Sequence record: PZ379178.1
DNA from: a phage
DNA: 46,856 bases
Direction: 5' to 3' (one strand)
The notes beneath the pieces are model-generated. The model ran no database searches and was not told the DNA's origin. It saw nothing but the letters and a program-made list of their open reading frames with translations. Below, piece by piece: positions 391 through 46,856 of this stretch. Every line of letters starts with the position of its first letter. Position 1 is the first letter of the stretch. The position numbers were made by a program, and so were the translations under genes.

Positions 391-1073
391 GCGTACTTCT
401 TAAGAACCCTTTCGATTTCTATTTGGATTACAGAACGGGCCATCATAATTCAACCGTCAACCCATCAATGGAGGTTGATGACTTTTTACATCAAAACATT
501 CTTGCGGCAATGGCTGGTGATGGTTGCTTGATTAAAAATACAGAAAAAGGAACGCATAGGCTATCTTGGAATATGGGAAATAAGGAGCACGCACTAAGCA
601 AGGTTGAAAGGTTTGCAAAACTAAACCCTAGATACAGGGAGAAGAAAAACCCTGGATTTGGCGACAACTGGTTTTGCGTATCAACATCATGTACGAAAGT
701 TCTGGATTCATATGCTGATAAGTACGGAAATTCTAAGGATGGTTACGATATTGGAAAGATATGCAGAGAGCTTAATCCAGTTGGTTGGGCTGCTTACTTT
801 GGTGATGATGGTCATTGCACTGTAAGCTCAGGGAAGAGGGTTGTAGAAATCCACACCGAATCATTTAGCAGGCGTGAAGTTCAATCAGTAGTTGATGCGC
901 TAATAGCATTTATTGCTAATGACGGAGTTAAGGTTAGAAGCTATATTGGCGGCAAGAAAAAGAGAGAGCTTTACTCAGTATCAATAACAACGAGGTCGGC
1001 ACAAGATGAGTTTTTTAAGAGAATTAGTAAGCACATGGAAAATGGCGTGGAATACAAAATCAAGCAAAATTAA
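366..1073 (+). CDS. LAGLIDADG-family homing endonuclease, free-standing ORF between intein halves
   Basis: Frame-0 ORF 219..1073 with two LAGLIDADG-like motifs (LAAMAGDGCL and AAYFGDDGHC); start 366 is first ATG with GGTGA-like SD, 219 is an alternative; overlaps both intein-half ORFs in a different frame. Confidence 0.55.
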   Translation: MPHSSKGLGVLLKNPFDFYLDYRTGHHNSTVNPSMEVDDFLHQNILAAMAGDGCLIKNTEKGTHRLSWNMGNKEHALSKVERFAKLNPRYREKKNPGFGDNWFCVSTSCTKVLDSYADKYGNSKDGYDIGKICRELNPVGWAAYFGDDGHCTVSSGKRVVEIHTESFSRREVQSVVDALIAFIANDGVKVRSYIGGKKKRELYSVSITTRSAQDEFFKRISKHMENGVEYKIKQN

Positions 1074-2716: not shown

Positions 2717-3136
2717 ATGAAAATCACAGACAAAGGTGATTACCTCGAGTTCTATGGCGGACCGGTGAAGTCATGCCCAAAGGAAGACGATGAACAAATC
2801 TTCTGCTCTGATTGGGTGAAATACAACTATCCGCAGATTGTTTACTGGCACACGATTAACGAAAATAAAAAGAGCATTGGTCAAGCAAGAAAAGACCAAG
2901 CCAAGGGGCTTCTCAAAGGTGTGTCAGACTGCTTATTTCTGATACCTGAGTCATTGCGTGGCGGTTATCCATTTGGCGCCATAGAGTTAAAGAGGGCTGG
3001 TAAAACGCAAGCAAGCCCAGTTAGCAATGAGCAAAAGTCATTCCTAAAAAGCGTAAGTGAATCAGGCGGTTTCGCAGCGGTGGCTTATGGAAGAGAGGGT
3101 TTTCTTGCGGCATTCGCAGAGATGATAAGAAAATAG
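2717..3136 (+). CDS. VRR-NUC-like PD-(D/E)XK nuclease
   Basis: 139 aa; GVSDCLFLIP ... FGAIELKRAGKTQ matches D...E-x-K nuclease core of VRR-NUC proteins; immediately follows helicase. Confidence 0.55.
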   Translation: MKITDKGDYLEFYGGPVKSCPKEDDEQIFCSDWVKYNYPQIVYWHTINENKKSIGQARKDQAKGLLKGVSDCLFLIPESLRGGYPFGAIELKRAGKTQASPVSNEQKSFLKSVSESGGFAAVAYGREGFLAAFAEMIRK

Positions 3137-10029: not shown

Positions 10030-10184
10030 AGTAAGATGCAATCTATCTTGTAGTAGTCAAAGTGATTTTCTGAAGATGTTTCTTTGTTATATTTAAACTC
10101 CTGTGCTTTGAATTCTTCATCGAAAGCGGCAATCACTTCGCTTCCATCATAGTGTGTGCAACCACTTACAATGTATAATTTCAT
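10014..10184 (-). CDS. Hypothetical small protein (56 aa)
   Basis: ATG overlaps upstream stop (ATGA); ORF ends NSTN* inside promoter box; below ORF-track cutoff. Confidence 0.3.
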   Translation of the reverse strand: MKLYIVSGCTHYDGSEVIAAFDEEFKAQEFKYNKETSSENHFDYYKIDCILLNSTN

Positions 10185-14324: not shown

Positions 14325-14747
14325 ATGAAATTAAGCAAATCTCAAAGGGAAGAGTTGAAGGGCAAGTTCGGTGGTCGCTGCGCTTATTGTGGGTGTGAAC
14401 TACCTGAGAAAGGCTGGCATGCTGACCATGTTGAACCGGTGCTACGTAAATCTGAGGTATGCATGAAGGCAGCGGAGAAAGGAACTTTCAAGCTGAAGGC
14501 GACAGGTGAGTTTAATCGACCACAAGCTGATCGAATGGAAAACCTTTACCCTGCATGTGCTCCATGCAACCTCATGAAAACTTGCTATTCCCTTGAAATG
14601 TTCAGGGAACAGGTGTCTCTTCAAGTCGCTCGCGGGCGTAAGAGCAGCATGAATTTTCGCACGGCAGAGCGGTTCGGCCTCATCTCCATAGTGGAGGATC
14701 CAGTTGTTTTCTGGTTTGAGAAGTTTGAGCAAATTAACAAAATCTGA
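14325..14747 (+). CDS. HNH endonuclease
   Basis: CAYCGC ... HADHVEP ... CAPCN motif arrangement typical of HNH nucleases. Confidence 0.6.
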   Translation: MKLSKSQREELKGKFGGRCAYCGCELPEKGWHADHVEPVLRKSEVCMKAAEKGTFKLKATGEFNRPQADRMENLYPACAPCNLMKTCYSLEMFREQVSLQVARGRKSSMNFRTAERFGLISIVEDPVVFWFEKFEQINKI

Positions 14748-16074: not shown

Positions 16075-16150
16075 GTTCTGCTGGCGTAACAGGATAACGC
16101 AAAGACCTCCTAAGTCTTAGTTACTGGTTCGAGTCCAGTGCGGAACACCA
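16075..16150 (+). tRNA. tRNA-Arg (anticodon CCU)
   Basis: Hand-folded cloverleaf: 7-bp acceptor stem (one G-U), U8, 4-bp D stem, 5-bp anticodon stem with loop CTCCTAA (U33, CCT, A37), T arm ACTGG-TTCGAGT-CCAGT, discriminator A and encoded CCA. Confidence 0.8.
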
Positions 16151-16687: not shown

Positions 16688-17212
16688 ATGAAAGACGAAA
16701 ACTTCACCAGTCAGGCGCAAGAAAAGGTCCGCTCTGGCAACTTTAAAGCCATGTACAATAAAAAGTACTCAGACATTACAACGCTAGCCAAAAACCGAAG
16801 CATGACACCCGAACAGCTATTTGAATTCGCCGTGAAATACTTCTCATGGGCTGAGGACCAGGCAATCAAGGCAATCGAGACAGCCAGCTTCCAGGGTGTG
16901 GTAAAAGAGAGCCTGGTGCACAAACCACGAGTCTTCACGCTAACCGGATTCTGCCTTTACTGCGGTGTCACCCATAGCGCCATCGAGAAATGGAGGAAGT
17001 CGGCTGGTTATGATGAGGTGATTGCGTTCATTGATTCCGTGATTCGCGAGCAGAAATACCAGCTTGCAGCATCTGGCATTGTTAACCCTGGCATGATTTC
17101 CAAGGAGCTTGGAATCGACAAACCGCAGGAGATCACTATAAGCAATAACTCTTCTGCTAACGACGTCGAAACGATGAAGGAAGCTCTGGAGTCTGTGATT
17201 AGTAAGCTGTAA
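16688..17212 (+). CDS. Terminase small subunit (putative)
   Basis: 174 aa directly upstream of terminase large subunit, first gene of late block after terminator; AAAGGAGG SD. Confidence 0.5.
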   Translation: MKDENFTSQAQEKVRSGNFKAMYNKKYSDITTLAKNRSMTPEQLFEFAVKYFSWAEDQAIKAIETASFQGVVKESLVHKPRVFTLTGFCLYCGVTHSAIEKWRKSAGYDEVIAFIDSVIREQKYQLAASGIVNPGMISKELGIDKPQEITISNNSSANDVETMKEALESVISKL

Positions 17213-17281
17213 TAACATGGGGTAGATTGGCGTGATCAAATTAATGAAGGCGTTATTGGTGTATTACATGATGGCAGCTAC

Positions 17282-18901
17282 ATGCTTCACAACTGGATTC
17301 TTAATTGGCGTGATGGTTGGATTGGTGAAATTATGGCTAATTTAGTTTGGGAGGAAATGACGCCAGCAGAAAAGATGGCGGTTAAGGCGATATCCACTCA
17401 TAGCTTCGAGGGTTTCTTACGAGTGTGGTTCCAGCTTACCCAGGGAGAGCGATACATACCTAACTGGCACCATAGATACCTTTGCAGAATTATCGATGAG
17501 ATTATTGCTGGTGAGCGTAAGGACACAATCATTAACATCGCTCCTGGCAGTGGGAAGACAGAGATTGCCTCAATTCACTTCCCAGCCTACTCAATGGTTA
17601 AGTTGAGAAAGGTAAGGAACCTGAATATATCGTATGCTGACTCACTGGTTAAGCGTAACTCCAAGCGTGTGCGCGACTTAATTAAGTCTGTTGAGTTCCA
17701 GGAGTTGTTCCCATGTAAGTTTGGTACGTGTAAGGATGATGAGCTACAGGTCCTGGATGACTATGGCAAGGTCAGGTTTGAGTCAATCTCTAAAGCCACT
17801 GGCGGCCAAATTACAGGCGCGAGGGGTGGATATATAACCGATTCGTATAGTGGTGCGGTACTGTTAGATGATTTTGACAAACCAGCCGACATGCTTTCTG
17901 CTGTTTTTCGCGCTAACAATCACGTGATGCTAAAGAATACAATACGCTCTCGTAGGGCGAGCTCCGTAAAAGGAAAGGCGACGCCGATTATCTCTATCCA
18001 ACAGCGCCTTCATGTGAACGATAGTACGTGGTTCATGATGAATGGCGGTATGGGTATTAGCTTCGACTTGATTAAAATACCGGCGCTCGTAACTGAGGAT
18101 TACGTCGACACGCTTCCTGACTGGATTAAGCAGCAATTCATTGATGACGTTCTATCAAGCGAATATATTGAGCGTGATGGTGTTAGGTACTATAGCTATT
18201 TCCCTGGCAAGGAATCTGTTCACGACCTAGTTGCAATGTGGGATTCTGATAGCTATACATTCCTTAGCCAGTATCAGCAAGAACCAGTAGCACTTGGCGG
18301 CAACCTGATTAACGTAGACTGGCTTCAACGCATTAGCGACACTCTGCGACCGCCAGCTAAGTACGATTACAGGTTTATGGTCCTTGATACTGCGATGACA
18401 ACCAAAAGTTACAGCGACTTTAGCGTCATGCAGCTATGGGGTTATAAGGATGGGAAGATTTATCTGCTTGACCAGCGGCGCGGTAAATTTGAAGCTCCTG
18501 AGCTCGAGGCTGAGTTATTGGATTTCGAGAAGATGGCTAGGGCATCCAATCAGATAGATGGCATCCTTCGTAAAATCATCATCGAGAAGAAAGCCTCTGG
18601 TATTGGCCTGATTCAATCAGCCGGAAGGGTTATGCGAACGCCTATCGAGCCGTACGTTCCGGATAACGATAAGCTGACTCGCGTAATGAGTGCATTGCCG
18701 CAGATTAAAGCTGGTAACGTAATCCTTCCGGAGTCTGCTACTTGGCTTAATGGCTTGCTAACGGAGATTGCGGCATTCACGGCAGATGATTCACATGTTC
18801 ACGATGACCAGATAGACTGTTTGACAATGGCTGTCAACCTGGTACTGAACATTGCAGAAGACCCTAAATCGAGGATGATGCGCCTCGCTGGCATCAAATA
18901 G
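17282..18901 (+). CDS. Terminase large subunit
   Basis: 539 aa; Walker A NIAPGSGKTE near N-terminus, acidic nuclease-type C-terminal half; position before portal; alternative start ATG 17336. Confidence 0.8.
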   Translation: MLHNWILNWRDGWIGEIMANLVWEEMTPAEKMAVKAISTHSFEGFLRVWFQLTQGERYIPNWHHRYLCRIIDEIIAGERKDTIINIAPGSGKTEIASIHFPAYSMVKLRKVRNLNISYADSLVKRNSKRVRDLIKSVEFQELFPCKFGTCKDDELQVLDDYGKVRFESISKATGGQITGARGGYITDSYSGAVLLDDFDKPADMLSAVFRANNHVMLKNTIRSRRASSVKGKATPIISIQQRLHVNDSTWFMMNGGMGISFDLIKIPALVTEDYVDTLPDWIKQQFIDDVLSSEYIERDGVRYYSYFPGKESVHDLVAMWDSDSYTFLSQYQQEPVALGGNLINVDWLQRISDTLRPPAKYDYRFMVLDTAMTTKSYSDFSVMQLWGYKDGKIYLLDQRRGKFEAPELEAELLDFEKMARASNQIDGILRKIIIEKKASGIGLIQSAGRVMRTPIEPYVPDNDKLTRVMSALPQIKAGNVILPESATWLNGLLTEIAAFTADDSHVHDDQIDCLTMAVNLVLNIAEDPKSRMMRLAGIK

Positions 18902-19382: not shown

Positions 19383-20660
19383 ATGGTAAAAGCAGATTCA
19401 TACGCCACGCAATTTCTTGGTGGCCCCAGTGATGGTAGCGAGATTTACGGGCACTTTGGCAACACGTATCTTACACCTCCTTTCGCTGATTCACTGTACG
19501 CATCAAACTCAATTGTACGCCGCATCGTCGACACCATACCGGAGACAGCAATCGCCGCAGGTTTCCATATCGATGGTATTGATGACGAAGGTGAATTCTG
19601 GTCCAGGTGGGATTACCTGAAGGTTAACGAGTCAATCTCTGACGCATGGTCATGGGCGAGGTTATTTGGCGGCTCTGCAATTGTGGCTATCGTTAAGGAC
19701 AATCGTGCGCTAACTAGCCCGGTACGTGAAGGCGCGGAACTTGAATCACTTCGCGTTTATGAGCGTAGCCAGGTAAGAGTTCAGACTAAGGAGGAAAACC
19801 CTCGCAATGTGCGATTCGGTAAGCCATTAACGTACCGCATCACGCCAGAAGGTGGCGCCATGTTTTATGATGTGCACTACTCGCGAGTTCACATTATGGA
19901 TGGCGAGAAGATTCCTAGTTCATTGCGTCGCGGTAATGACGGGTGGGGTGCTAGCGTTCTGGTTCCTGACCTGCTTGAATCAATCAAGGATTATCAGACG
20001 TGTGAGAAACTGGCAACTCAGTTATTGCGCCGCAAGCAGCAGGCGGTGTGGAAGGCTAAAGGCCTTGCTGAACTGTGTGACGACGCGGAAGGTTTTGGTG
20101 CGGCCAGGTTGAGGCTTGCTCAGGTTGATGATAACTCTGGCGTTGGTCGCGCGATTGGTATCGACGCTGAAGCTGAAGAGTACAGCGTTCTTAACTCGGA
20201 TATTGGTGGGATTGATGGATTCCTCGATAAGAAGTTCGACAGAATTGTTGCTCTGAGCGGTATCCATGAAATCATTCTCAAAGGTCGTAACGTTGGCGGG
20301 TTATCATCTAGCCAAAACACAGCGCTAGAGACATTCCATAAGTTGATTGACCGCAAGCGTAACGAAGAGCTACTTCCAGTTCTTGGGTTCTTAATCCCGT
20401 TCATCACAACCGAGCAAGAATGGTCAGTTGAGTTTAACCCTCTAGCTCAGGAATCGAAGAAAGACCGCGCTGAAATACTGAAGAATAACGTTGATTCAAT
20501 TACTGCTCTTATCACTAACGGCGTGATGGATGCAGACGAAGCACGAGATACCTTGCGCGCATTAGCCCCTGAGGTTAAGATTGGTGAAGGTTCAATTGAG
20601 ACAGAGGTAACAATCAATGAAACCAGTGAAGACCCGCTGGAAGTACCCGCAGACAATTGA
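19383..20660 (+). CDS. Portal protein (putative)
   Basis: About 426 aa, immediately downstream of terminase region and upstream of head-morphogenesis gene; start 19383 chosen because 19356 overlaps terminator. Confidence 0.7.
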   Translation: MVKADSYATQFLGGPSDGSEIYGHFGNTYLTPPFADSLYASNSIVRRIVDTIPETAIAAGFHIDGIDDEGEFWSRWDYLKVNESISDAWSWARLFGGSAIVAIVKDNRALTSPVREGAELESLRVYERSQVRVQTKEENPRNVRFGKPLTYRITPEGGAMFYDVHYSRVHIMDGEKIPSSLRRGNDGWGASVLVPDLLESIKDYQTCEKLATQLLRRKQQAVWKAKGLAELCDDAEGFGAARLRLAQVDDNSGVGRAIGIDAEAEEYSVLNSDIGGIDGFLDKKFDRIVALSGIHEIILKGRNVGGLSSSQNTALETFHKLIDRKRNEELLPVLGFLIPFITTEQEWSVEFNPLAQESKKDRAEILKNNVDSITALITNGVMDADEARDTLRALAPEVKIGEGSIETEVTINETSEDPLEVPADN

Positions 20661-21345
20661 GAATCAGGTAAACCGCAACCTTAGCGTTGCGGTAACTGAG
20701 CTAATATCTGCAATGAAAGAATCAGCTACGCGGCTTAAGATTGACACTGCCGAGGAGCTAGAGCAGGAAGATAATTATCTCGACGCAATCATAGCAGCGC
20801 TTATAGCTTCTGTTGTAGCTACACTTCCGGCAATTGGAGCGTCAATATACAGGTATAATTCATCGCAGTTTCTTGTGCTGGCAATCAAGACTGGTGGCGG
20901 CTCGGTTCAGTCAGTTATGGACTTGAGACTTAACGGTATAAATGGAGATGAAGATTGGTATCAGCCGGATTTAAACCAGTGGCTTTACACATCAAATAAG
21001 TCCGTTGAAAAGTTACTCAACAATATCAAGGACGACTTTATTCAGTCTGCATCAATCATACAGAGTGGTGACTACCTTAAGATTAACGAAAGGTACAAGA
21101 TTTACCGCAAGAGAACTGCTAATATAGCCTCAGGCATCACGTCCAGTATTAACTCTACGTTCATGCGCAGGAGGCTAGAGGATGCTGGTGTTACCCATTA
21201 CATTTGGCACGGCATGCTTGATGAAAGGGAGCGAATGACCCATTTCAAGAAAGAGGGCCTAAGCTTCAGGTTGAGCGGTAACGATCTCTTCCCTGGTCAG
21301 GAATACGGCTGTCGTTGTTGGGCTGTGCCGGATTGGGAGTCATAA
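20617..21345 (+). CDS. Head morphogenesis / minor capsid protein (putative)
   Basis: 242 aa overlapping portal 3-prime end; C-terminal YIWHGMLDERERMTHF resembles conserved core of phage head-morphogenesis proteins. Confidence 0.5.
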   Translation: MKPVKTRWKYPQTIENQVNRNLSVAVTELISAMKESATRLKIDTAEELEQEDNYLDAIIAALIASVVATLPAIGASIYRYNSSQFLVLAIKTGGGSVQSVMDLRLNGINGDEDWYQPDLNQWLYTSNKSVEKLLNNIKDDFIQSASIIQSGDYLKINERYKIYRKRTANIASGITSSINSTFMRRRLEDAGVTHYIWHGMLDERERMTHFKKEGLSFRLSGNDLFPGQEYGCRCWAVPDWES

Positions 21346-21393
21346 CATGAGGATGAAAGATGAATTCGATGGATTTTAGTGAGGAGAATTGGG

Positions 21394-25279: not shown

Positions 25280-25709
25280 AAATATTGGTGGGTTGGCTAC
25301 ATTTACGAATAGTATTGCTGATTGGATTGATAGAGCTGATGATAACTTCTCTGATATTGTTTCTGGCACTGTAATTAAGGCTGCTAACGCCATCGTTGAT
25401 TTATCGCCTGTTGATACTGGTAGGTTTAAGGCTAACTGGCAGATTACAGCGAACTCCCCAGCCGCTCAGTCTCTGAATGATTACGACAAAACAGGTGGAG
25501 ATACAAAAAGGTATCTGGCAAGGCAAGCTCGAGCTGTGGCTAATTCACCAGCGACAAAGGTTATCTACATAACTAACAGGCTTGATTACGCCTCTGACCT
25601 TGAGTATGGATCGTCACAACAAGCGCCAGCAGGTGTACTTGGTGTAGTCAATATCCGGCTTGGGCGTTACTTCGAAGAAGCCGTAGCTGAAGCAAGGAGT
25701 AAACGATAA
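25263..25709 (+). CDS. Neck/tail completion protein (putative)
   Basis: 148-aa ORF in connector region. Confidence 0.4.
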   Translation: MLPMARNIGGLATFTNSIADWIDRADDNFSDIVSGTVIKAANAIVDLSPVDTGRFKANWQITANSPAAQSLNDYDKTGGDTKRYLARQARAVANSPATKVIYITNRLDYASDLEYGSSQQAPAGVLGVVNIRLGRYFEEAVAEARSKR

Positions 25710-26107
25710 TGCAGTATGAATTATCTTTGGCGGCAAGGAGGTTTGTGACTGATTTGGTTAAAACGTTTCCAGTCAGGTATCCAATCTCCTATGAAAACGT
25801 AGCCTTTTCCCCTCCAAGAAATGGCGGCATGTGGCTGAAGTACGATTATACCGAGGCTGACACAGTAACCTATAGCTTGAGTCGCAAGTGTAAGTATTAT
25901 GTTGGCATGGTTCAGGTATCTGTCTTTTTCTCACCAGGTGATGGTGTTGATAGTGCGAGGAGAATTGCTAATCAATTGGCAGAATCAATGCTTGATGGTA
26001 CAATGCTTGACACAGGCTACATTTATGAGGGCGGAGTAGTTCACCCGGTAGTGAAGTCAAAATCTGGCTGGTTTATTCCAGTTCGTTTCTATGTTCGTCT
26101 TGACTAA
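25709..26107 (+). CDS. Tail terminator-like protein (putative)
   Basis: 132-aa ORF preceding major tail gene. Confidence 0.4.
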   Translation: MQYELSLAARRFVTDLVKTFPVRYPISYENVAFSPPRNGGMWLKYDYTEADTVTYSLSRKCKYYVGMVQVSVFFSPGDGVDSARRIANQLAESMLDGTMLDTGYIYEGGVVHPVVKSKSGWFIPVRFYVRLD

Positions 26108-26117
26108 AAGGTTGCAA

Positions 26118-26603
26118 ATGAAAGAGTTCTTAAATTCTCTTTACGATTATCGCGATGGTCAAATCTTTCATAAAGGAGGTTCAAAGCCATGTGGGTATGG
26201 AAAGCCTAACGGATACATTCAAACTTACGTCTCAAAGACTGGTAAGAAGTATGTTCACAGGATTATTTGGACAATGCATAATGGAGACATCCCAGAAGGC
26301 ATGCAAATTGACCATTTAAATGGCAATAGGAGCGACAACCGCATTGAGAATTTAAGGTGCGCATCAGTAACTGAAAATAGAAGAAATTCAGGAACGAAAT
26401 ATAGGTATCGTAGATTCCCTGGTGTTAATGGTGTAAACTACAATAAGCGCGATAATCTTTGGCATGCAATGATTTCTGATAATGGCGTAGCTAAGAGCCT
26501 TGGTCATTACAAGTCATTTGTTAGTGCATGTGAAGCTAGAATTATCGCAGAAGTAAATCTTGGATACCACGTAAATCACGCGATGCGTGATAGCGTATAT
26601 TAA
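26118..26603 (+). CDS. HNH homing endonuclease (HNH_3-like)
   Basis: MQIDHLNGNRSDNRIENLR motif typical of phage HNH endonucleases; inserted between tail terminator and major tail genes; start 26118 preferred over 26091. Confidence 0.55.
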   Translation: MKEFLNSLYDYRDGQIFHKGGSKPCGYGKPNGYIQTYVSKTGKKYVHRIIWTMHNGDIPEGMQIDHLNGNRSDNRIENLRCASVTENRRNSGTKYRYRRFPGVNGVNYNKRDNLWHAMISDNGVAKSLGHYKSFVSACEARIIAEVNLGYHVNHAMRDSVY

Positions 26604-26612
26604 CTTAACTCT

Positions 26613-27290
26613 TTGAATTGGAGGTGTATTATTGCCCATCTCAGCAATGGCACTCAGGTCTTCGTAGAAGGCACTAGGGGAGCTGCTATCGACGTAACCG
26701 CAATTTCCAACGCGGTTAATCCTGTTTTAACTTTGTCCAGCGTTGCAGATATTGCACGCGGTGACTACCTGTTGTTTACCAGCTCCGCTTCAACTCTGCT
26801 GGCTGATAAGCAAGTTCGCGTTACCGCAGTGTCTGGTTCAACCGTAACTGTTGAAGGTATTGACACCTCCAGCACCACCAAGTTCCCGGCCGGTTTAACT
26901 GGTGAAGTGGTTAAGATTCTTAGCTGGTTTGAGGTTCCTTGCGTTCAGGACGTATCCACTGACGGCGGCGAACAGCAGTTCGTTAACTTCCAGTGTTTAT
27001 CCGATGACCGTGAGCAACAGATTCCAACTTATAAATCTGCGGTAACTAATACCTACACTTTCGCGCACGAATACACCAACCCGATATATCCGATTCTGCG
27101 TAACTATGACGAAGCTGGTACTGTTGTTGCTATCCGTCTGTTCGTACCTCGCGCTAGTGAGATGCGTCTTCAGTCTGGCACTATCGCTTTCAACGACACG
27201 CCGAGCATTGGTGTTAACGAAATCGAAACGGTATCCATTGCGGTATCTATTCGCGGCAGGCTGAGTTCTGTAGCTTCTGAACTGGCATAA
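26613..27290 (+). CDS. Major tail protein (putative)
   Basis: 225 aa, position between connector genes and tail chaperones, followed by strong terminator; start may be ATG 26646. Confidence 0.55.
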   Translation: MNWRCIIAHLSNGTQVFVEGTRGAAIDVTAISNAVNPVLTLSSVADIARGDYLLFTSSASTLLADKQVRVTAVSGSTVTVEGIDTSSTTKFPAGLTGEVVKILSWFEVPCVQDVSTDGGEQQFVNFQCLSDDREQQIPTYKSAVTNTYTFAHEYTNPIYPILRNYDEAGTVVAIRLFVPRASEMRLQSGTIAFNDTPSIGVNEIETVSIAVSIRGRLSSVASELA

Positions 27291-36800: not shown

Positions 36801-37300
36801 ACACTTACGTTACTGCCGATTCAATTGGTGCTCAGTACGGGATTAAACTTGGCCTCAAATACAATGGCGTTGAGTACAGTTCTGGCATGAGTATGGAGCT
36901 AACTGGTTCTGATGGCAATGTTCGTAGTCAGGTCATCTTTGATGCTAACAGGTTAGCAATCAGTAACGGCATTAGCTCTGGATCCGGTCAGTGGTCATTG
37001 CCTTTCGTAGTTGAAGGTAATCAGGTATTCATTCAAAGCGCAGTGATTCAGGATGGTTCAATCACTAACGCGAAGATTGGTAACCGGATTCAATCTAATA
37101 ACTACGTGGCTGGTTCTCAGGGTTGGGCCATTGATAAGTCAGGCAGTGCGGAACTTAACAATGCAACTGTAAGGGGTAGTCTGTACGCAAGTAACGGCAA
37201 CTTTGCGTTTAACGGAACCAACAACACTGTTCAGATTAACAATAATGGAATTACAGTTAATTTACCGAATGGTGGAAGGGTTGTAGTTGGAGTGTGGTAA
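33875..37300 (+). CDS. Host specificity / central tail fiber protein (gpJ-like)
   Basis: 1141 aa, last and largest gene of tail-tip cluster after I-like gene. Confidence 0.75.
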   Translation: MAQMVKTNAELCDMAEEIKIYGSKGGQPKQHQPVEQPDNLISVNKVKVLLAVSDGEVDSSFSLKDLYLADVPVQNQNGTYNYEGVTAEFRPGTQSQDYIAGLEGANSEVQVNREIKNSTPYIIAVNNTQLSAIRVKLFWPRLINQESNGDLNGTTCEYAIDLSVDGATYTEYTRGVANGKTTSGYDRSIRVNLPAEFSSALVRVRKITADSESSTLVNDMQITTYQEVIDAKFRYPLTALVYVEFSSDLFPNGIPTISIKKKWKLIRVPTNYNPETRTYSGTWNGTFKMAYSNNPAWVLYDLVTNQRYGLDQRELGITIDKWGLYEAAQFCDQMVPDGKGGVEPRYLCDVVIQQKVEAYQVIRDICSIFRGLTFYDGEQIGIVVDKPRQPSYVFTNDNVVDGLFNRTFGSDKSLYTVANVQFDDVENSYQQDVEPVFELEATRRFGYNPVDLTAIGCTRRSEANRRGRWLLKTNIRSETISFTTGLEGMIPMIGEVIAVNDQAWSSNYTLNLSGRIESVSGLQVFVPFKIDATAGDRILINKPDGMPEYRTIASVSEDGMTLQLNTAFSFTPQPDTVFAIDKENLALQQYVVTGIQKADSDGDDAFGYTITAVEYDPNKYDEIDYGVNIQDRPTSIVEPDTLLAPENVQVSSYSKVVQGLSVETMVITWDKVQYAKTYTVQWRKENGNWINVPRTASTEVDIEGIYAGIYQVRVRAVSDTENVSAWSDIVSVSLTGKIGTPSSPTVITASDDEIFGIRVKWGFPENSADTSYTELQQVADNGDGTYTPENASLLTLVPYPSYEYWHTTLPAGKVIWYRARLIDKIGNVSPWTDFVRGMASDDVSSIIGDIKVDIENSDGFKYLQQNAIESNGAIQAQAESIIENALANDGDVRRMTKENGKRKAEFVQAVNLIADEERARVEALTQLKAQIDDEIVASLTRIDTALAEETQARTTADTALSARLGDNEAALNEKLDTYVTADSIGAQYGIKLGLKYNGVEYSSGMSMELTGSDGNVRSQVIFDANRLAISNGISSGSGQWSLPFVVEGNQVFIQSAVIQDGSITNAKIGNRIQSNNYVAGSQGWAIDKSGSAELNNATVRGSLYASNGNFAFNGTNNTVQINNNGITVNLPNGGRVVVGVW

Positions 37301-37306
37301 ATGATT

Positions 37307-37330
37307 AGGCCCCTTTCGGGGCCTTTTCTT
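37307..37330. terminator. Bidirectional terminator between J-like gene and minus-strand operon
   Basis: AGGCCCC-TTTC-GGGGCCT followed by TTTTCTTTT; convergent genes end at 37300 and 37331. Confidence 0.65.
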
Positions 37331-38302
37331 TTAGTAGAAGTTTGGTATGAATGGTAGAGCCATTGATATGTTTGTGTCGAATGGGAATTGGGCTCCCGTC
37401 TGCGTTGAGTAGTTCCCTATCACAGTGCCTGGAACTGCCCTTACGGCACCACCAGACATGCATATTCCCTTGTACCTTAAGTTGTTATACCCTCCAGTAA
37501 CTCTTGTTGTAGCGCCGCACCTGAGCAGTGGGAAGAACCCTCCATTTATTGACTGGAAACCATTGGTTATTTGTATAAAGCCACCAAGCACGAACGGTCG
37601 CCTGACGCTTGAAAAAACAATCTGTCCAGAACTATTAGACATTGTGAGTCCTGGGCCAGCTACTGGAGGGTCATTCCTGAATATCACTAACTGTACGTAA
37701 GTACTTGCTGCAACGTCATCTATGCCGCTGTAGTTTATGTTGCGGCACCAAATTGTATTACCGTCGCTCTCCAGAGAAACGTTTGGGTTATCCCATTTAC
37801 CAAATGGAATCCCACTGACTGGTAGTGAGGCGGCGCCGTTAACCTGTATTCCACCAACCCATGCCGCAGACATTAACCGCGAATTGCTTGAAATTGCCAA
37901 AAAGTCAGTTGAGTTCTCAACCAGTATTCCTGGGCTTGATGAAGACGAGGCTGGGAGTATTTCAAAGCAATTTCCAGCAAAGTCAATTATACGACCTCTT
38001 GCGCCATTGAAGTCACTAAGCGTTATCCTGCCAGTTCCGTCATTTACCTTCTGGAACCCGTTCATATAATAAACTTCAGGTACAACATCATAAGCGTCAA
38101 CGTGCACAGCCTTTGTTGGAAGGCAGAATGCTGTTGAGCCTGTGGACATGGTTAAACCAAAATCCCATGATGATGCTGGCGTCGAAAGTCCATTGGTATT
38201 TATTGAGCCAGTCACAGCGGGCGCTCTTAATCCTGCCGTTATTTCCATAGGTGGCCTTCCGTCGTTGAGGTCTATCAATATACCCTGTGGCATTATTTCC
38301 AC
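37331..38302 (-). CDS. Hypothetical Gly/Ser/Asn-rich protein, cotranscribed with lipoprotein gene
   Basis: 323-aa ORF overlapping 3-prime end of 38293..38538 by 10 nt; convergent with J-like gene at bidirectional terminator. Confidence 0.5.
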
Positions 38303-38538: not shown

Positions 38539-38622
38539 TTTAGTATTCCCTAGAATGTGTGTTTCGTTTCAATGGAGTAATGATATCTCATCATTGAGAT
38601 TTGTCTTTAGCTATTCGTGCTA
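38539..38622 (-). promoter_or_regulatory. Box-hairpin-leader cassette (minus orientation)
   Basis: Reverse-complement box TAGCACGAATAGCTAAA (38606-38622), hairpin, leader CATTGAAACGAAACACAC; precedes lipoprotein gene ATG 38538. Confidence 0.5.
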
Positions 38623-39291
38623 TTTACTTTCCAGTAACAGCTTAATGTCGATACCAAGTTTATTCTCGATCAATCCGGTCAGTGCGTCCGTCTTTTCTTT
38701 AAGAGCAAAGCATTGCGTTTCATACTTAAACCTTGCTTCCATTTCATCGGAACGTGATGCCCAAGACTGCCGAGCCTCGCAAGCAAGCATATCTAGTTTT
38801 TCATCTGTATTCTTATCCATGAGAAGGATTTCATTGATTCGCTGCTCAGCAACGATTCGCTGACTAAGGTGAGCGTTCTGCGCATTAGCCACACCAAGCA
38901 TCATGCGTGCCTCTTTTAGCTCATCAATACTAACCATCTTGCTGATTACTTCCTGTTGAGTGTTAATGGTTTGCTGCATCTCTTTTAGCTTGTTTAGAAC
39001 CGAACGACGAACAGACTTTGACTCACGCATTCCGACAAGAAGCATTTGCTCCATATTAAGCACTGGTGAGTTGATCGACTTTCTATAACCACCTCTTCCC
39101 TCACTTTTGATTACGAAACTTTCGTAGTCAAACTCAAACCCCTCAATCTCATCCTCTATCCTCTCAACAAAGTCATTGTGTCGAACATCAGATTCACCAG
39201 CAACTAACCTCGCTGGGTTGATAACTTCATTCAAAAACTGATAACTGTTCATTTTCACATCTTCATTTAGTAGAGCTAGGTTCATTTTCAT
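38620..39291 (-). CDS. Rha-like phage regulatory protein (putative)
   Basis: N-terminal SYQFLNEVINPARLVAGESDVRHNDFVERI resembles Rha-family N-domain, coiled-coil C-terminus; start 39291 after AGAGAG SD. Confidence 0.4.
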   Translation of the reverse strand: MKMNLALLNEDVKMNSYQFLNEVINPARLVAGESDVRHNDFVERIEDEIEGFEFDYESFVIKSEGRGGYRKSINSPVLNMEQMLLVGMRESKSVRRSVLNKLKEMQQTINTQQEVISKMVSIDELKEARMMLGVANAQNAHLSQRIVAEQRINEILLMDKNTDEKLDMLACEARQSWASRSDEMEARFKYETQCFALKEKTDALTGLIENKLGIDIKLLLESK

Positions 39292-39380
39292 CTCTCTTTT
39301 TTTATTCTGGCTAAGCACCATTGCCGCCATGCGCACAAATATACCCAAATACTGCATCTTGTCTTTAGCAAATCGTGCTA
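39292..39380 (-). promoter_or_regulatory. Box cassette (minus orientation)
   Basis: Reverse-complement box TAGCACGATTTGCTAAA (39364-39380), TATATT, AAAAAAAGAGAG SD; precedes Rha-like gene. Confidence 0.45.
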
Positions 39381-39500
39381 TTTATCGCAAATTTACCCAT
39401 AAATCATGGTTACGCGTAATCGATGTAACTCGATGTATACCATATGCATCCGCGGGAAATCGTATACGCCTAGTTACGCCAGTTTACGCCATAGTTACAC

Positions 39501-40069: not shown

Positions 40070-41041
40070 ATGACATTTAAAGTTTATACGAACGACGAGC
40101 TAACCAATGAAGCCTATCACGAAGAGAAAGACCATATCTCTGGCTCTTCGCTGGCTGAGATTCTTGCTACTTCTCCAGCAAAATGGAAATTTAAGCAGCG
40201 CAGCAACTCAAGTGCAGCACTAAAGTTTGGCACTTTGAGCCATACGATGATGCTAGAACGTGAAGTGTTCGATTCCACTTACATGCGAGCTACTGACTTT
40301 GACGAAGTGGAAGGATTGATTACTAGCCAAACAGCTTTATCGGCAGCGCTTAAAAAAGTTGGCGTTTCCGGCACGTCAGGGAAGGGTTATAACGAGCTTG
40401 TGGAGATGATGTATAAGTCTGGCGAGGATTGGCCGGTTAAATGGTTAATTGAGCAGCAGGAGAGCGCTGAGGCGTTAATTAGTGGCAAGGAGCTGGTTAG
40501 TGCTAAAGATTACGACAAGGTAATCGCAATGCGAGAAGTTCTGACCAATATTCCGGCTTACGATGCGGTAATTAATTCACCAACAGCACAGAAAGAGCTG
40601 TCAATCTTTGGTGAGATTCTCGGCTGCGGCGTTAAGGTTCGGCTTGACCACGTGGATGTTGTTAATGGAGTGGTTTACATTACTGACTATAAAACAACAG
40701 CAGACGCAAGCCCGAGAGGATTTGGTAAGTCAGCTTATGACCATGGTTACCTGTGTAAGATGGCACTTCAGCGCGATTTGTTTGTTAAAGCATTCAACGA
40801 AAAGCGTAAGGTTGTGGTTCGACTTCTGGCTCAGGAGAAAACAGAGCCCTACTTACCTATGTGCTACACACTTACAGATGAGCAGCTTCGCATTGGGCGC
40901 TTACAATATTTAGAGGCTCTGGCTGTTTACAAGCAGTGCAAGGAACTTGATGATTGGCCTGGATACAGTAATGGGATTACAGAGCAAGATTTGATGATTC
41001 CTGAGTGGGTAAATAAGCAGTATCAAGAATTACTAAAATAG
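40070..41041 (+). CDS. PD-(D/E)XK-type exonuclease (putative recombination exonuclease)
   Basis: VRLDHVDV ... VYITDYKTT matches D...D/E-x-K nuclease core; directly upstream of annealase and SSB. Confidence 0.5.
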   Translation: MTFKVYTNDELTNEAYHEEKDHISGSSLAEILATSPAKWKFKQRSNSSAALKFGTLSHTMMLEREVFDSTYMRATDFDEVEGLITSQTALSAALKKVGVSGTSGKGYNELVEMMYKSGEDWPVKWLIEQQESAEALISGKELVSAKDYDKVIAMREVLTNIPAYDAVINSPTAQKELSIFGEILGCGVKVRLDHVDVVNGVVYITDYKTTADASPRGFGKSAYDHGYLCKMALQRDLFVKAFNEKRKVVVRLLAQEKTEPYLPMCYTLTDEQLRIGRLQYLEALAVYKQCKELDDWPGYSNGITEQDLMIPEWVNKQYQELLK

Positions 41042-42252: not shown

Positions 42253-44778
42253 TTGAAGCGCCATCCTTGAGTTGGTAAATATTAAAGCGTCTCTTTGGTT
42301 ATCGAACTCTACAACGAAGTAATCAGCAAGACTTAATACCATACCAGGTAGCCCATTAAGGTTGATATGCAGGTTTGCAGTGCCAGAGACTGAAGCCTGA
42401 GCAACTCCAAATGTGTGAACCCACTTACCGCCCTCAGTGAATACCTTCCCTAAAGATGCACTACCAAAAATACTGATAACACCATCAGCACCACCTTGAA
42501 TTCTGTTTGCAGAGATACCCCAAACATACCATTTGCCAGCGGTTATATTAAAGACACCATTTATCAATTCGTACTGAGCCGCACCACCCAATTCGTAGTA
42601 TCCAGATGATTGCGAGTGTATACCCCTTGTATCAGAACCTTCACTTGCCGACCCTGTTCCACCAAAGTTGTTCCCACCAGTACCAAAAGGCTTCCTGACT
42701 AAAACAGTTCCGGAATCAGGGTTAAAAACTCGACCTTTAGTAACATATCCTCTAACAGATAAGTCAGATGTACCCGTTATCTTGGCTGTCTGTGATACCA
42801 GTGACTCAACTATAACGTTTGATGTTGAAGAGCCATTCAGGTATGCATCCTTAGCAAAAATAATACTGTTTGAATCAAGAGAGAAACTTTGATGCCCGTC
42901 AGCGTTATCAAACCTGCAACCGTAAGTAATAAGGTTTGAGTTCGACAACTCAATGTTATTAATGTAGGAATGCTCAGCAAAGAAAACAGACGTATCGATG
43001 AGCTTCAAAACCCTTGGGAGTTCAGCTCCCTCACCTACGTTAATTGCCCCACCAGTTGCTATCGCTTCAAACCATACGTTAGACAATCCGCAAGGTGATG
43101 TTGGGCAATCTCCAGGTTTATTCTTTAACCTTATACCGCCGCCAGCAGAGGCCTCCATTATTGAATCCCTAATCCACCACCCACCAATTCCTCCAGCGCC
43201 AGGGTTCGTTGCGCTACTTGTGCTTGTCGCATCTAGCATTACTGAATATTGAGAGATTGTATCTGAGTGGTATCCGTATAAAGTGTCCGCTCCTATATGC
43301 ATTTCGTCATGAGCTTTTGCTCGATACCCGTAATTCGCATTTCTAATACTTACGTTTCTGTAGGTATTTCCAATGTTGCCAGCATTTTTCCTTATACCAA
43401 CATCCAGGTCATTGAAGTAAAGCCTATCCAATACAACCCTTCCAGCATAAGGGCCATCCGGGAATTGAAAGCCGTTATTACCTTGTATTGCAGTACCTGT
43501 AAACTGCAAATCCGATAAATGCTTTTGCCTCCAGTGCGGAACCGATAGCGTTGAGGTGAGTCCGGTTTCAAAAGGTTTAACACTTATTACGGTATTATAT
43601 CCAGAGCCTGATATGTTCCTGCCAGCAAAGGAGTAGTTATTACTCTCATAAGTTCCCGGGCTTATAACTACCGACCCGCCATCGCCAGCGGCTTCTATTG
43701 CTGAAGATATTGAGCCGCTATAGCTTGATGTGCTTTTTGAATCTGTATTTAAAATTGATGATAATTCGCTCTTTGAGTAAACATCAAGGTTGGTTCTTGC
43801 TTCTGCTTTATCTGCAACATCAGATAAATTCAATGATTTTTGAAAAGTCTCATTTTTTGAGTAAACATCAAGCAAGCCTCTTACTCGCTGGGCGCTAGCG
43901 CCGCCAACCTTACTTCCTGATGCGACATAAAGAGCCTCTCTTGAATAGTAAGTTTTGTTTGGTGCCGTGCCAGTCTGAGTTAAATCAATCAACCTGTACG
44001 TATTATCGGATCCGGTTGATGCTGACACTTGTATGTTCTTAACACCAGTAATCCCCCTTGATGACTTAACCTCAATCGCACAAAGCGTGCTATCGGAGTA
44101 GGTTATATTTATCACCTCTGGAGCGTTGATCATTGCTGACTTTTGGCATAGGTATCTAGCTCCTGATTTGAAATCAAACGTATTCCAGTCAAGTTCTGTC
44201 AACTGAGGTGTAAACGAGCCACCGATACCCATATTGGCAAGAGTTACCATTGTGCCAGCATCACCAGCACTATTAATTGCCTCAATAGTAGCATCTCTCG
44301 CTGATGTGGTTGTATCCCTTGCGCTAACGGCAGTAGCGGCGCTCTCTGCGGCAGCAATCTGGCTAGCTAAAGACTCGGCAGCCCCTGTTACTGATTGGTT
44401 TGCTAATTGCTCGAAGCGAGGCCAATCGAAATTATCTTGCCCGATAAATTGCAGCAAACTTTCAATAGAAGTCTCCTTTGACTGATAGTAACGCAGAGTC
44501 TCAGCAACATCCTGAGCTAAACCCTGAACGGTAATGCCATCGTGAGCAAGAATCGCGTAACCAGTTCCGGCAGGAACAGTTTCAGAATTAGGGTTGTAAA
44601 CATTAATCTGAGTGTCGCTGATGATTTCAGAGATGGTATAAATTTTAAGTGGACTGGTTTTAAAAATAATGGTTGCACCTACACGAATAAGTGTAAGTGG
44701 TGCTTTCCATGTTGTCCGGACGCCAGTAACCTCGCCATTTGCGGCTAGCGACGCTGTTCCTAAGTCATAAATTGCCAT
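42250..44778 (-). CDS. Tail fiber / tailspike-like protein
   Basis: About 842 aa; central region with repetitive Asn/Gly/Ser-rich beta-helix-like segments; start ATG 44778 preferred over GTG 44808. Confidence 0.6.
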   Translation of the reverse strand: MAIYDLGTASLAANGEVTGVRTTWKAPLTLIRVGATIIFKTSPLKIYTISEIISDTQINVYNPNSETVPAGTGYAILAHDGITVQGLAQDVAETLRYYQSKETSIESLLQFIGQDNFDWPRFEQLANQSVTGAAESLASQIAAAESAATAVSARDTTTSARDATIEAINSAGDAGTMVTLANMGIGGSFTPQLTELDWNTFDFKSGARYLCQKSAMINAPEVINITYSDSTLCAIEVKSSRGITGVKNIQVSASTGSDNTYRLIDLTQTGTAPNKTYYSREALYVASGSKVGGASAQRVRGLLDVYSKNETFQKSLNLSDVADKAEARTNLDVYSKSELSSILNTDSKSTSSYSGSISSAIEAAGDGGSVVISPGTYESNNYSFAGRNISGSGYNTVISVKPFETGLTSTLSVPHWRQKHLSDLQFTGTAIQGNNGFQFPDGPYAGRVVLDRLYFNDLDVGIRKNAGNIGNTYRNVSIRNANYGYRAKAHDEMHIGADTLYGYHSDTISQYSVMLDATSTSSATNPGAGGIGGWWIRDSIMEASAGGGIRLKNKPGDCPTSPCGLSNVWFEAIATGGAINVGEGAELPRVLKLIDTSVFFAEHSYINNIELSNSNLITYGCRFDNADGHQSFSLDSNSIIFAKDAYLNGSSTSNVIVESLVSQTAKITGTSDLSVRGYVTKGRVFNPDSGTVLVRKPFGTGGNNFGGTGSASEGSDTRGIHSQSSGYYELGGAAQYELINGVFNITAGKWYVWGISANRIQGGADGVISIFGSASLGKVFTEGGKWVHTFGVAQASVSGTANLHINLNGLPGMVLSLADYFVVEFDNQRDALIFTNSRMALQ

Positions 44779-44802
44779 TGTGTAAAGTCTCCATTTGTAA
44801 AG

Positions 44803-44819
44803 TAGCACTAATTGCTAAA
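44803..44819. promoter_or_regulatory. Isolated box copy TAGCACTAATTGCTAAA with ambiguous orientation
   Basis: Box overlaps tail fiber 5-prime region (start 44778, minus) and lies beside primase terminator hairpin 44853-44866; no downstream leader on plus strand. Confidence 0.35.
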
Positions 44820-44843
44820 GTGGATTGTATCATCTTTCAGGTA

Positions 44844-44866
44844 TAAAAAAACCTCCCGAAGGAGGT
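44844..44866 (-). terminator. Rho-independent terminator after primase gene (minus strand)
   Basis: CCTCC-CGAA-GGAGG with A7 on plus strand (T-run on minus). Confidence 0.55.
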
Positions 44867-45792
44867 TAGTCTAGTAATTCGTTTGCCTTGTATATTCTCT
44901 TTCTTATGCCTGACTTGAAAAAATTACCATCATTTGGAATTACAATATCAAGATTGCGATCGTCAGCAACGGCAAGTAAATCAAAAGAGTTGCGAGTACA
45001 AGCGACGCGTAACTTGTAGTTCCTAAGCGCATAAGCAACCATTTCCATGTTGTAGCTGGAGTGGCAAACAAGCACGCAGCGATTTCCAGTAGCAAGATGA
45101 ACGCGAACACCATCAATCCAATTATCGACCAGATAAGCGTACTCATCATCTTTAAAGGTGCCAATAATAGAAACAGACTGGCGAGTATAATCTTTTGCAG
45201 CATAGCTAACATCTCCATCTTCATTGATAAACATTACATTGCACATATCATCTGATATGCCGTCACTATAAGCCATAAAGCACGGTACTGCGTGTATTAG
45301 TTCGCCTGATTTCGTCCTGCCAACATCAAAACCAAATTCGCTATAGATACCCTCGTATGTACTTAGCGGAGTTAATTCTACTCTTTCCGTCCTTTCCATT
45401 ATCTCTAAGCATCTTTCGTGATCAATCTTGGCGCCCATTTTGTATGGTGATGTACGAGATGCTCTTTTGTTTGCTTTTGATATAACCTCTACTGGAACGA
45501 GATTCAGCCAATCACCAAGCGTATCTATTGTTTCGCTATAACTCATTCCCGAGCATTTCATAACCCAGCCAACACCAGAATCATTTCCGCACTGGTTGCA
45601 TATTGCTGCGCCATTTCCCTTTTCCTGACCTAACTCATCAGTGAAGCGAAACCTATCCCTGCCAAAGCAGTAAGGGCACGGACCATGTTTCTTGCTGAGA
45701 TTCTCCTTTGTCCATCCAAGGTTCGATGAGTAGAATTCGCCCCACATTCCCTTCATTTTTGCTATCACTTCGCTCTTATCATGGTGACTCAT
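44866..45792 (-). CDS. DNA primase-like protein (zinc-binding domain)
   Basis: N-terminal CPYC-x17-CNQC zinc-ribbon; start 45792 with GGAGG SD; promoter box upstream (45844-45860). Confidence 0.5.
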   Translation of the reverse strand: MSHHDKSEVIAKMKGMWGEFYSSNLGWTKENLSKKHGPCPYCFGRDRFRFTDELGQEKGNGAAICNQCGNDSGVGWVMKCSGMSYSETIDTLGDWLNLVPVEVISKANKRASRTSPYKMGAKIDHERCLEIMERTERVELTPLSTYEGIYSEFGFDVGRTKSGELIHAVPCFMAYSDGISDDMCNVMFINEDGDVSYAAKDYTRQSVSIIGTFKDDEYAYLVDNWIDGVRVHLATGNRCVLVCHSSYNMEMVAYALRNYKLRVACTRNSFDLLAVADDRNLDIVIPNDGNFFKSGIRKRIYKANELLD

Positions 45793-46436: not shown

Positions 46437-46856
46437 ATGCTTCCAGTAGAGCGCTTAGTGGCGAACTTTGATAAAGAGAAAATTAAACAGATTCAGAAAG
46501 ATTACCAGTTTGGAGACATAACGCCTTACGAATTCCAGTGCGTGACATTTGACGCAATCGGTAAGGCTATTGGCAAGTACGAAGCGCCATTCATCGCAGA
46601 CCTGTCGGTGTCTGCTGGTAAGACAATTATACTCGCCATGATTGGGAAACGAATGGAACAGCTTGGCCTTCCTTACATGGTCCTATCTCGCCAGTCAGAG
46701 ATTATCAGCCAGAACGCAGAGGAACTTCGTAATTTCGGCATCCGTAATAGCGTCTATTGCGCTGGCCTTAACGTTAAATCAGTTTACTACCCAACCATAG
46801 TGGCTAGCGAGGGTACGGCTGCCAACGGCTTATTTAAGGGGCTTGGTGACTATGTT
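46437..46856 (+). CDS. Helicase N-fragment, 5-prime part (runs off window end, continues at nt 1)
   Basis: ATG 46437 is 73 nt downstream of promoter box 46364; Walker A SVSAGKT; 140 complete codons to window end, in frame with nt 1 ORF. Confidence 0.6.
   Translation, partial: MLPVERLVANFDKEKIKQIQKDYQFGDITPYEFQCVTFDAIGKAIGKYEAPFIADLSVSAGKTIILAMIGKRMEQLGLPYMVLSRQSEIISQNAEELRNFGIRNSVYCAGLNVKSVYYPTIVASEGTAANGLFKGLGDYV

Follow-up and report, generated by a model that had tools for sequence, protein, structure and literature searches.

A probable free-standing HNH homing endonuclease gene and a probable AUU start codon of the adjacent major tail gene in a T1-like Escherichia coli phage

Sequence record PZ379178.1, whose whole stretch of 46,856 nucleotides (nt) is here called the window, comes from a Braunvirinae-like (T1-like) Escherichia coli phage of the family Drexlerviridae. 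Between its tail terminator gene and its major tail tube gene lies an open reading frame (ORF) of 161 amino acids (aa). Judged from the sequence, this ORF is very probably a free-standing HNH_3 homing endonuclease gene carried on a cassette of about 520 bp, and the adjoining tail gene most likely starts at an ATT codon in place of the ATG found in relatives lacking the cassette. An initial annotation of the window had recognized the ORF by its HNH motif IDHLNGNRSDNRIENLR (residues 64-80) and had placed it between the two tail genes. The motif is present and the Pfam and PHROG matches of both neighbours confirm the position; the start-codon change in the downstream gene is the point which that annotation missed. 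As a homing endonuclease gene the ORF is routine, given that T1-like phages carry many and that its orthologues in phages RobRod40 and phiEB49 are already labelled HNH endonuclease. Both the kind of gene and the site are known, and the ORF adds a member that is about 80% identical to its nearest annotated orthologue. The altered start leaves the major tail tube gene without a canonical start codon in at least three genomes, so that structural and taxonomic users of the records are given a wrong protein.

Comparison with relatives defined the borders of the insert. The closest database relatives, phages AN_ECEAS and ES, share 91-94% nt identity with the window over most of the genome. In a blastn comparison with the full AN_ECEAS genome, positions 26112..26629 remained unmatched, AN_ECEAS having 6 nt there. 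The spacer of AN_ECEAS, ES, Rao1, IMM-001, IME542 and seven further relatives consists of the terminator stop codon, AAGGAAAA(A)YAY and ATG, with no ORF between. More precisely, the terminator TAA in Rao1, IMM-001, IME542 and AN_ECEAS is followed by AAGGAAAATAT (AAAGGAAAATAT in IMM-001) and then by the tail-gene sequence ATG GCC CAT CTC, and seven IMG/VR relatives have the related spacer AAGGAAAAAYAC, then ATG. Using a 60-nt junction query, we found at least 20 further phage records in which the alignment begins only at the start codon. The insert takes the place of the last 7-8 nt (AAAATAT) of the relatives' 11-12 nt spacer and adjoins the changed third base of the tail-gene start codon at 26633 (ATG to ATT). 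Its G+C content is 39-40%, against 43-49% in the flanks. At the 5' junction the window keeps TAAAAGG of the empty spacer, the AAGG now lying 6 nt before the nuclease ATG at 26118. The terminator and tail ORFs are intact on either side, and the genes upstream stand in the usual order of capsid, DUF4054, head closure and neck protein. An insertion into the conserved connector-to-tail order had been claimed initially, with synteny as the proposed check; the nearest relatives, which have nothing but the short spacer at this place, uphold it. A search of 25900..26800 against Rfam, up to E=1, gave no match to a group I intron or other structured RNA, and Pfam gave no Hint or intein domain in the nuclease ORF. 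The nuclease gene is free-standing, and the insert is not an intron.

The nuclease itself was then defined by profile and fold comparison. The ORF listing gives 26091..26603, with an upstream ATG at 26091 that falls inside the preceding gene. All orthologues start at the ATG corresponding to 26118 (MKEF or MKDF), and therefore 26118..26603 is the correct call. Pfam HNH_3 (PF13392) matches residues 44-89 over all 46 model positions with E=1.5e-23 and 82.5 bits (cutoff 24.8), and PHROG 99 (phrog_99, 'HNH endonuclease') matches with E=1.1e-44; the HNH motif is thus not a chance match. An alignment of 44 homologues yielded a profile, A1, which was searched against PDB sequences and on which an AlphaFold model was built. 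Residues D65, H66, N74, N78 and N90 are invariant in all 44 homologues and N87 is conserved in at least 90%, and the Asp-His and Asn residues of the ORF align with DH...N...N of I-HmuI. The A1 profile retrieved I-HmuI (PDB 1U3E, E=2.8e-10) over profile positions 5-115, and the plant AP2/ERF proteins WRI1 (7WQ5, E=8.7e-6) and TEM1 (7ET4, E=4.5e-4) over positions ~100-152. In the model, residues 106-148 form three strands and a helix. Foldseek against PDB gave I-HmuI as the top match (1u3e_M, E=5.3e-5, probability 1.00) and superposed the C-terminal module on AtERF1 (1GCC) with a root-mean-square deviation of 1.3 A over 51 columns (probability 1.00). The single nuclease sequence scores E=0.03 and 15 bits with Pfam AP2, below the cutoff of 33.3, so the AP2 part is visible only by family profile or fold comparison; the homologues P0033, P0044 and P0045 carry both Pfam domains (HNH_3 and AP2). 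An assignment to a non-nuclease family had been named at the outset as the outcome that would count against the annotation, and Pfam, PHROG, the PDB profile search and Foldseek all point to a nuclease.

According to these predictions, the ORF encodes an intact HNH enzyme whose N-terminal and catalytic parts are like those of I-HmuI, and whose C-terminal DNA-binding domain is similar to AP2. The protein resembles I-HmuI of phage SPO1 in both sequence and fold of the N-terminal DNA-binding region and the HNH core, and keeps the Asp-His pair and the downstream Asn. However, the I-HmuI gene lies within a group I intron and the enzyme has a helical C-terminal DNA-binding part, whereas the present gene is free-standing, without an Rfam intron match, and its C-terminal module is AP2-like. 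The combination of HNH and AP2 domains is already known among homing endonucleases, and enzymes of this kind (PF13392 with PF00847) were reportedly described by Magnani et al. in Plant Cell in 2004. The protein shares with them an HNH domain followed by an AP2-type domain of three strands and one helix, but its AP2 domain has diverged so far that the Pfam model by itself does not pick it up.

The same site is occupied in other phages. Orthologues were sought by tblastn against 50,697 phage records and in a large protein collection. The former gave only two close orthologues, in RobRod40 (80.7% aa identity) and in phiEB49 of the Rogunavirinae (70.4%). The latter gave further orthologues of 50-82% aa identity, six of which were looked up; all are at the same site, on nine assembled contigs. 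Nuclease orthologues thus occupy this site in 11 other loci (RobRod40, phiEB49 and the nine contigs) from two Drexlerviridae subfamilies. The proteins of RobRod40 (WWD13273.1) and phiEB49 (gp45, YP_009018659.1) have 160-161 aa with HNH_3 and AP2-like domains and are annotated 'HNH endonuclease'; the altered start of the tail gene is not remarked in these records. Both cassettes share the GGAGGTGTATT-ATT 3' junction with the window, while their nuclease genes have only ~70-77% nt identity to that of the window and their 5' junctions differ, with TAG GAACTAGC in RobRod40 and a 70-nt leader containing a terminator-like hairpin in phiEB49. This leader, with the hairpin AAAGCCCCTCCTGGGGCTTTT, precedes the nuclease gene in Rogunavirinae-type cassettes (phiEB49, locus L005, 2431..2500; contig L017, 1431..1500) and is missing from the cassettes of the window and RobRod40 type, the 5' cassette end varying by lineage and the 3' end being conserved. 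The next homologue, at 46% identity, lies elsewhere, in an early-gene region, and remoter ones (~40-45%) are found at different places in the genomes of T1-like phages, such as behind the tape measure gene of JeanPiccard. A search of IMG/VR for related loci with the nuclease protein returned only distant homologues of 36-45% identity, and an exact-pattern scan of IMG/VR for GGAGGTGTATTATTGCCCA returned phiEB49 alone.

Alignment of the 12 insert-carrying loci revealed that the tail-gene start differs along with the cassette. In 11 of them ATG is replaced, by ATT in 10 and by ATC in one (L017). The 10 loci read TGGAGGTGTATT ATT GCY CAT, the ATT aligning exactly with the ATG of empty alleles, and L017 reads GGAGGTGTACC ATC GCA CAC. 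The sole exception is the most distant orthologue, L018 (50% identity), after which a canonical AAGGAG-N6-ATG follows. The 3' spacer TGGAGGTGTATT is identical in the 10 loci and in the ATT spacers of two phages without the nuclease, DTL and MM01. In all ATT and ATC alleles of this type GGAGG ends 6 nt before the ATT or ATC, an ideal spacing for a Shine-Dalgarno sequence. In phiEB49, L017 and DTL, the stretch from the preceding stop to the ATT or ATC contains no in-frame ATG, GTG or TTG. In the same three, codons 2-88 after the ATT or ATC, which take in part of the Pfam tail-tube domain, show proportions of nonsynonymous differences (pN) of 0.08-0.18 against proportions of synonymous differences (pS) of 0.42-0.67, indicating purifying selection. 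Because of the GGAGG spacing, the lack of another in-frame start in these three and the selection on codons 2-88, initiation of the tail gene at AUU or AUC is the parsimonious and probable reading of the sequences. The tail protein would then begin with (M)AHLSNGTQ... or (M)AHLSNGTQVFVEG...

Two points weigh against this start. An in-frame TTG lies 18 nt upstream of the ATT (26613 in the window) in 10 of the 13 ATT-type alleles, DTL and MM01 counted, and could serve instead, perhaps by re-initiation after the nuclease stop, giving a protein that begins MNWRCIIAHL...; and a protein required in hundreds of copies would be poorly served by a weak start such as AUU. The TTG has no Shine-Dalgarno sequence and overlaps the GGAGG. 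Among E. coli genes, infC and pcnB start with AUU, and the AUU of infC serves autoregulation by IF3, a low-abundance factor, whereas the product of the tail gene is among the most abundant proteins of the virion. mRNAs with AUU are translated in E. coli extracts, although less well than those with AUG, and compete poorly (PMC5499595). What these mRNAs, infC and pcnB have in common with the tail gene is a near-cognate AUH codon at the optimal Shine-Dalgarno distance.

Several other ways of expressing the tail gene were considered. The frames in the window, RobRod40, phiEB49, DTL and MM01 would allow translation to continue from the nuclease or the terminator ORF into the tail gene, by read-through or as a fusion, but this was rejected as a general mechanism because the frames disagree in L013, L017, L021 and L022. 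The out-of-frame GTG at 26624 and TTG at 26632 each open a short dead-end frame and were discarded as tail starts. Folding of the start region was not above that of shuffled controls (z-scores +0.2 to +1.1). A sigma-70-like promoter match (9/12) at 26605..26632 overlaps the 3' spacer of the cassette and would start transcription inside the tail gene; a cassette promoter was rejected since such matches occur near the shuffled rate (6 found versus 3.2 +/- 1.7 expected). A scan of JGI metagenome contigs for TGGAGGTGTATTATTGC gave 42 matches, all by chance, none of them followed by a tail-protein reading frame.

The consequences are seen in public annotations. The tail gene is annotated with 130 aa in the RefSeq record of DTL, where it is ORF 40 of 393 bp (PMC5816109), and with 184 aa in the phiEB49 annotation and in the gene call of L017, the full length being about 219 aa; the missing canonical start thus leads gene callers and annotators to shorten the gene. 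The tail protein of related T1-like phages migrates at 23.6 kDa, versus a theoretical 23.5 kDa (PMC4070988), which fits the full-length form. If the AUU start is confirmed, the tail gene would show that in nature a near-cognate start codon can serve for a very abundant protein, and the cassette would show that a mobile element is able to reshape the signals by which its new neighbour is expressed. Beside the start, tail codons 2-6 (A H L S N; 26634..26648 in the window) form two synonymous and strongly divergent haplotypes among loci L001-L034, GCC CAT CTC AGC AAT and GCT CAT TTA TCA AAT. Both occur with ATG and with ATT alleles, and could reflect nucleotide-level selection beside an endonuclease target or plain recombination between lineages.

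The ATT spacers without a nuclease bear on how the altered start arose. In DTL (Braunvirinae; L033, 1468..1500) the terminator stop is followed by the tail gene as TAA ATTAACTCATTTATTTGGAGGTGTATT ATT GCT, and in MM01 (Rogunavirinae; L034, 1196..1228) as TAA ATTAACTTATTGAATTGGAGGTGTATT ATT GCT. Both have ATTAAC directly after the terminator stop, similar to the TAT TAA C formed by the last codon and stop of the window's nuclease ORF and the base after them. We therefore read them as deletions of the ORF with the rewritten start left behind, and the sequences suggest a deleted ORF instead of a naive site. In cultured E. coli phages the site accordingly exists in three states (ATG without the cassette, ATT with it, and ATT without the nuclease gene), which make a convenient system for the cycle of invasion, fixation and loss of a homing gene. 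The same two spacers may also be taken to mean that the ATT spacer is an older, independent allele into which the nuclease ORF was inserted, the ATG/ATT difference being merely linked to it. The canonical ATG that follows the distant orthologue in L018 agrees with such an origin, which we nevertheless consider unlikely, although it is the strongest of the alternatives. The ATTAAC in DTL and MM01 matches the nuclease ORF end, suggesting deletion, and nuclease-less ATT spacers are seen in only two phages versus at least 20 ATG alleles. Furthermore, the ATT spacer of the window sits in flanks identical to those of ATG-type phages, and spacer and ORF travel together in either case.

If the start was altered by the cassette, a further step can be proposed, and only tentatively. 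The cassette may rewrite the start of the essential tail gene, exchanging a weak site with AUG for a strong GGAGG with AUU or AUC, perhaps as a determinant of self-immunity that persists as a scar in DTL and MM01. That the ATG to ATT change and the new spacer protect against the enzyme is speculation. Should the proposal be true, homing-endonuclease traffic would account both for the non-canonical start of a major virion protein and for the systematically shortened annotations in public genomes. We know of no mob- or seg-type cassette that swaps a neighbour's AUG for AUU.

Given the family of the enzyme, a putative model of homing can be drawn. In a mixed infection, the enzyme would nick or cut the empty spacer of a phage without the cassette, and recombinational repair off the cassette-bearing genome would copy the cassette in. 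This would be intron-less homing, as for the mob and seg genes of T4. The cassette appears arranged so as not to silence its essential neighbours: the nuclease ORF would use the old AAGG as ribosome-binding site, while the 3' end of the cassette would give the tail tube gene a new strong GGAGG, with ATT (ATC in one lineage) at the position of the former ATG. The T4-like genes mobA-E (HNH) and segA-G (GIY-YIG) are likewise intergenic, intron-less, placed between conserved genes and polymorphic among relatives, and presumably spread in the same way, the empty allele being cut and then repaired from an occupied copy; mobE is such a free-standing gene (PMC2790892). For the T4 examples there are experimental cleavage and co-conversion data.

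Two features of the nuclease gene speak to its history. Pairwise Nei-Gojobori comparison of same-site orthologues gave ratios of nonsynonymous to synonymous divergence (dN/dS) of 0.05-0.15, with synonymous differences of 45-75%, that is, with synonymous sites near saturation; the gene has been kept functional for a long time. Cassette similarity disagrees with that of the flanks. Identities of the terminator, nuclease and tail genes are 91.5%, 77.8% and 91.8% between the window and L021, 89.7%, 66.9% and 77.7% between phiEB49 and L017, and 86.3%, 98.4% and 91.9% between RobRod40 and L014. The discordance goes in both directions, as independent movement of the cassette predicts.

The flanks of the window count weakly against nuclease-driven homing. 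Sliding identity against six relatives revealed no co-conversion tract in them, which is weak evidence, the donor genome not being identified. Over the final ~130 nt ahead of the insert, the window is 100% identical to Rao1 and AN_ECEAS, which have no insert, the downstream flank has no excess similarity to other cassette-bearing phages, and the flanks match insert-less relatives up to the junctions. In addition, long residence and ordinary recombination could explain why orthologues at one site are so deeply diverged. The initial annotation had called homing active, which overstates the case, since activity is only presumed from the family of the enzyme and the flanks show no co-conversion tract.

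The same observations can be arranged around a long-resident, domesticated gene that aids the phage, either by cutting the DNA of co-infecting relatives or by tuning late-gene expression through its AP2 domain, its patchiness being due to ordinary recombination and loss. Purifying selection with saturated synonymous divergence would be the mark of a long functional history, and the retention of one site across two subfamilies, the missing co-conversion tract and a cassette built into the translation signals of the tail gene would all suit such a role. However, most close relatives are viable without the nuclease, the discordance between cassette and flanks is what mobility predicts, and the HNH_3, I-HmuI-like, HNH-AP2 family is known for homing enzymes. 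We regard domestication as improbable, more so than an older ATT allele; benefit to the phage and homing are in any case compatible and not mutually exclusive. That the ORF is a decaying, inactive remnant is very unlikely. Homing endonuclease genes often degenerate after fixation, and nuclease-less ATT spacers exist in DTL and MM01, but the ORF is full-length, keeps all catalytic and nearly invariant residues, has a dN/dS of ~0.1 and gives a confident structure prediction. Finally, small HNH proteins among phage structural genes sometimes have a packaging role, but a terminase cofactor of the HK97 gp74 type is effectively refuted by the absence of the gene from viable close relatives, the gene moreover lying ~7 kb from terS (16688..17212, Pfam GP3_package) and terL (17282..18901) and its product being of the HNH_3/I-HmuI/AP2 type, not the gp74 type. 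A homing endonuclease gene on a mobile cassette thus stays the favoured reading. The positions of the features are collected in Table 1.

Table 1. Positions of the cassette, its parts and neighbours, the altered start regions and the split helicase gene (window coordinates unless another locus is named)
Feature	Position	Strand	Basis or remark
HNH homing endonuclease ORF (predicted)	26118..26603	+	161 aa; HNH_3 profile; AlphaFold model, mean predicted local distance difference test score (pLDDT) 87.4
N-terminal beta-rich region, aa 1-43	26118..26246	+	like the N-terminal DNA-binding part of I-HmuI
HNH_3 catalytic domain, aa 44-89	26247..26384	+	D65, H66, N74 and N78 inside; N90 one residue past
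AP2/ERF-like DNA-binding domain, aa ~101-150	26418..26567	+	three strands and a helix; profile, Foldseek
Insert relative to insert-less relatives, ~520 nt	26112..26630	+	blastn against AN_ECEAS, junction alignment, composition
5' junction	26108..26117	+	AAGG (26108..26111) of the old terminator/tail-gene spacer kept
3' spacer of the insert	26604..26630	+	Shine-Dalgarno GGAGG at 26620..26624
Tail terminator gene, upstream flank	25709..26107	+	Phage_tail_terminator_5 PF13554, E=3.1e-19; PHROG 179 'tail terminator'
Major tail (tube) gene, downstream flank	26631..27290 (ORF from 26613/26631)	+	Phage_tail_3 PF08813, E=2e-67; phrog_584 'major tail protein'
ATT/ATC start regions	window 26620..26633; phiEB49 (L005) 2984..3007; L017 1990..2006		
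Helicase N ORF (N-extein and putative intein N-half)	46437..46856 + 1..390		...AVIAIDE|CLTGDTMI..., stop at 390
LAGLIDADG ORF	366..1073		between N and C ORFs, in another frame, overlapping both
Helicase C ORF (putative intein C-half and C-extein)	1006..2715		...HHNFIADGVVAHN|CHMVDHMD... (junction ...VAHN|CHMVDH...)

Besides the cassette, the window holds two further nuclease ORFs, and the initial annotation had counted three homing endonuclease genes of two families. All three match the stated families, the homing function of the ORF at 14325..14747 being no more than plausible from its sequence. This ORF (140 aa) matches PHROG 2118 (HNH) with E=7e-55 and Pfam HNH weakly, with 23.0 bits against a cutoff of 21.4. 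It is HNH or endonuclease VII-like, with homologues scattered among T4-like, Acinetobacter, Vibrio and Streptococcus phages, and is probably another mobile nuclease gene. Its homologue in AN_ECEAS is annotated 'DNA repair ATPase'.

The third ORF, of the LAGLIDADG type (LAGLIDADG_2 PF03161, 31.1 bits versus a cutoff of 25), had been taken as evidence for homing independent of inteins. This part of the claim fails, as the ORF lies inside an intein in the DEAH motif of a helicase. The window is circularly permuted, and the helicase gene crosses its end. Pfam Intein_splicing matches with model positions 17-78 in the N ORF and 119-155 in the C ORF, and Rao1 has an uninterrupted 664-aa helicase with ...AVIAIDEAHMVDHMD at this place. 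The same three-ORF layout is present in AN_ECEAS and ES, with 100% aa identity for the intein N-half, and at 56% identity in five Pectobacterium phages, in which the junction residues and both LAGLIDADG motifs are kept. From its sequence, the interruption looks like a naturally split intein. A 'fractured gene' with a split intein and a free-standing endonuclease is described in PMC2677866, and the helicase agrees with it in having the host gene in two ORFs with an endonuclease ORF between. According to a paper of 2024, coliphages had until then yielded no report of an intein (PMC11162368). Of all the items in the window, the split-intein helicase is probably the most interesting.

Endonuclease genes vary widely among the phages of this group. 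The window and AN_ECEAS, two genomes that are 91-94% identical, each have some that the other lacks. AN_ECEAS (L024) has three annotated HNH or homing endonuclease genes that are absent from the window, at 36850..37347, 44521..44997 and 20124..20333, one of them directly before the large terminase gene. The corresponding places in the window (10030..10179, 17212..17344 and 41022..41035, against 36856..37342, 44453..44981 and 20107..20602 in AN_ECEAS) are empty. The window-specific segments 20599..21378, 38628..39406 and 43885..44317, defined against AN_ECEAS, hold no recognisable endonuclease genes. Rao1 and phiEB49 each have one endonuclease gene ahead of the head-completion genes, which in Rao1 follows the capsid gene directly, and DTL has several endonuclease genes (PMC5816109). 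An ORF of 245 aa (38620..39357, minus strand), with no significant Pfam match, lies in a 779-nt segment missing from AN_ECEAS. A single tRNA gene is found at 16075..16147 (Rfam RF00005, 58.9 bits), upstream of the small terminase gene.

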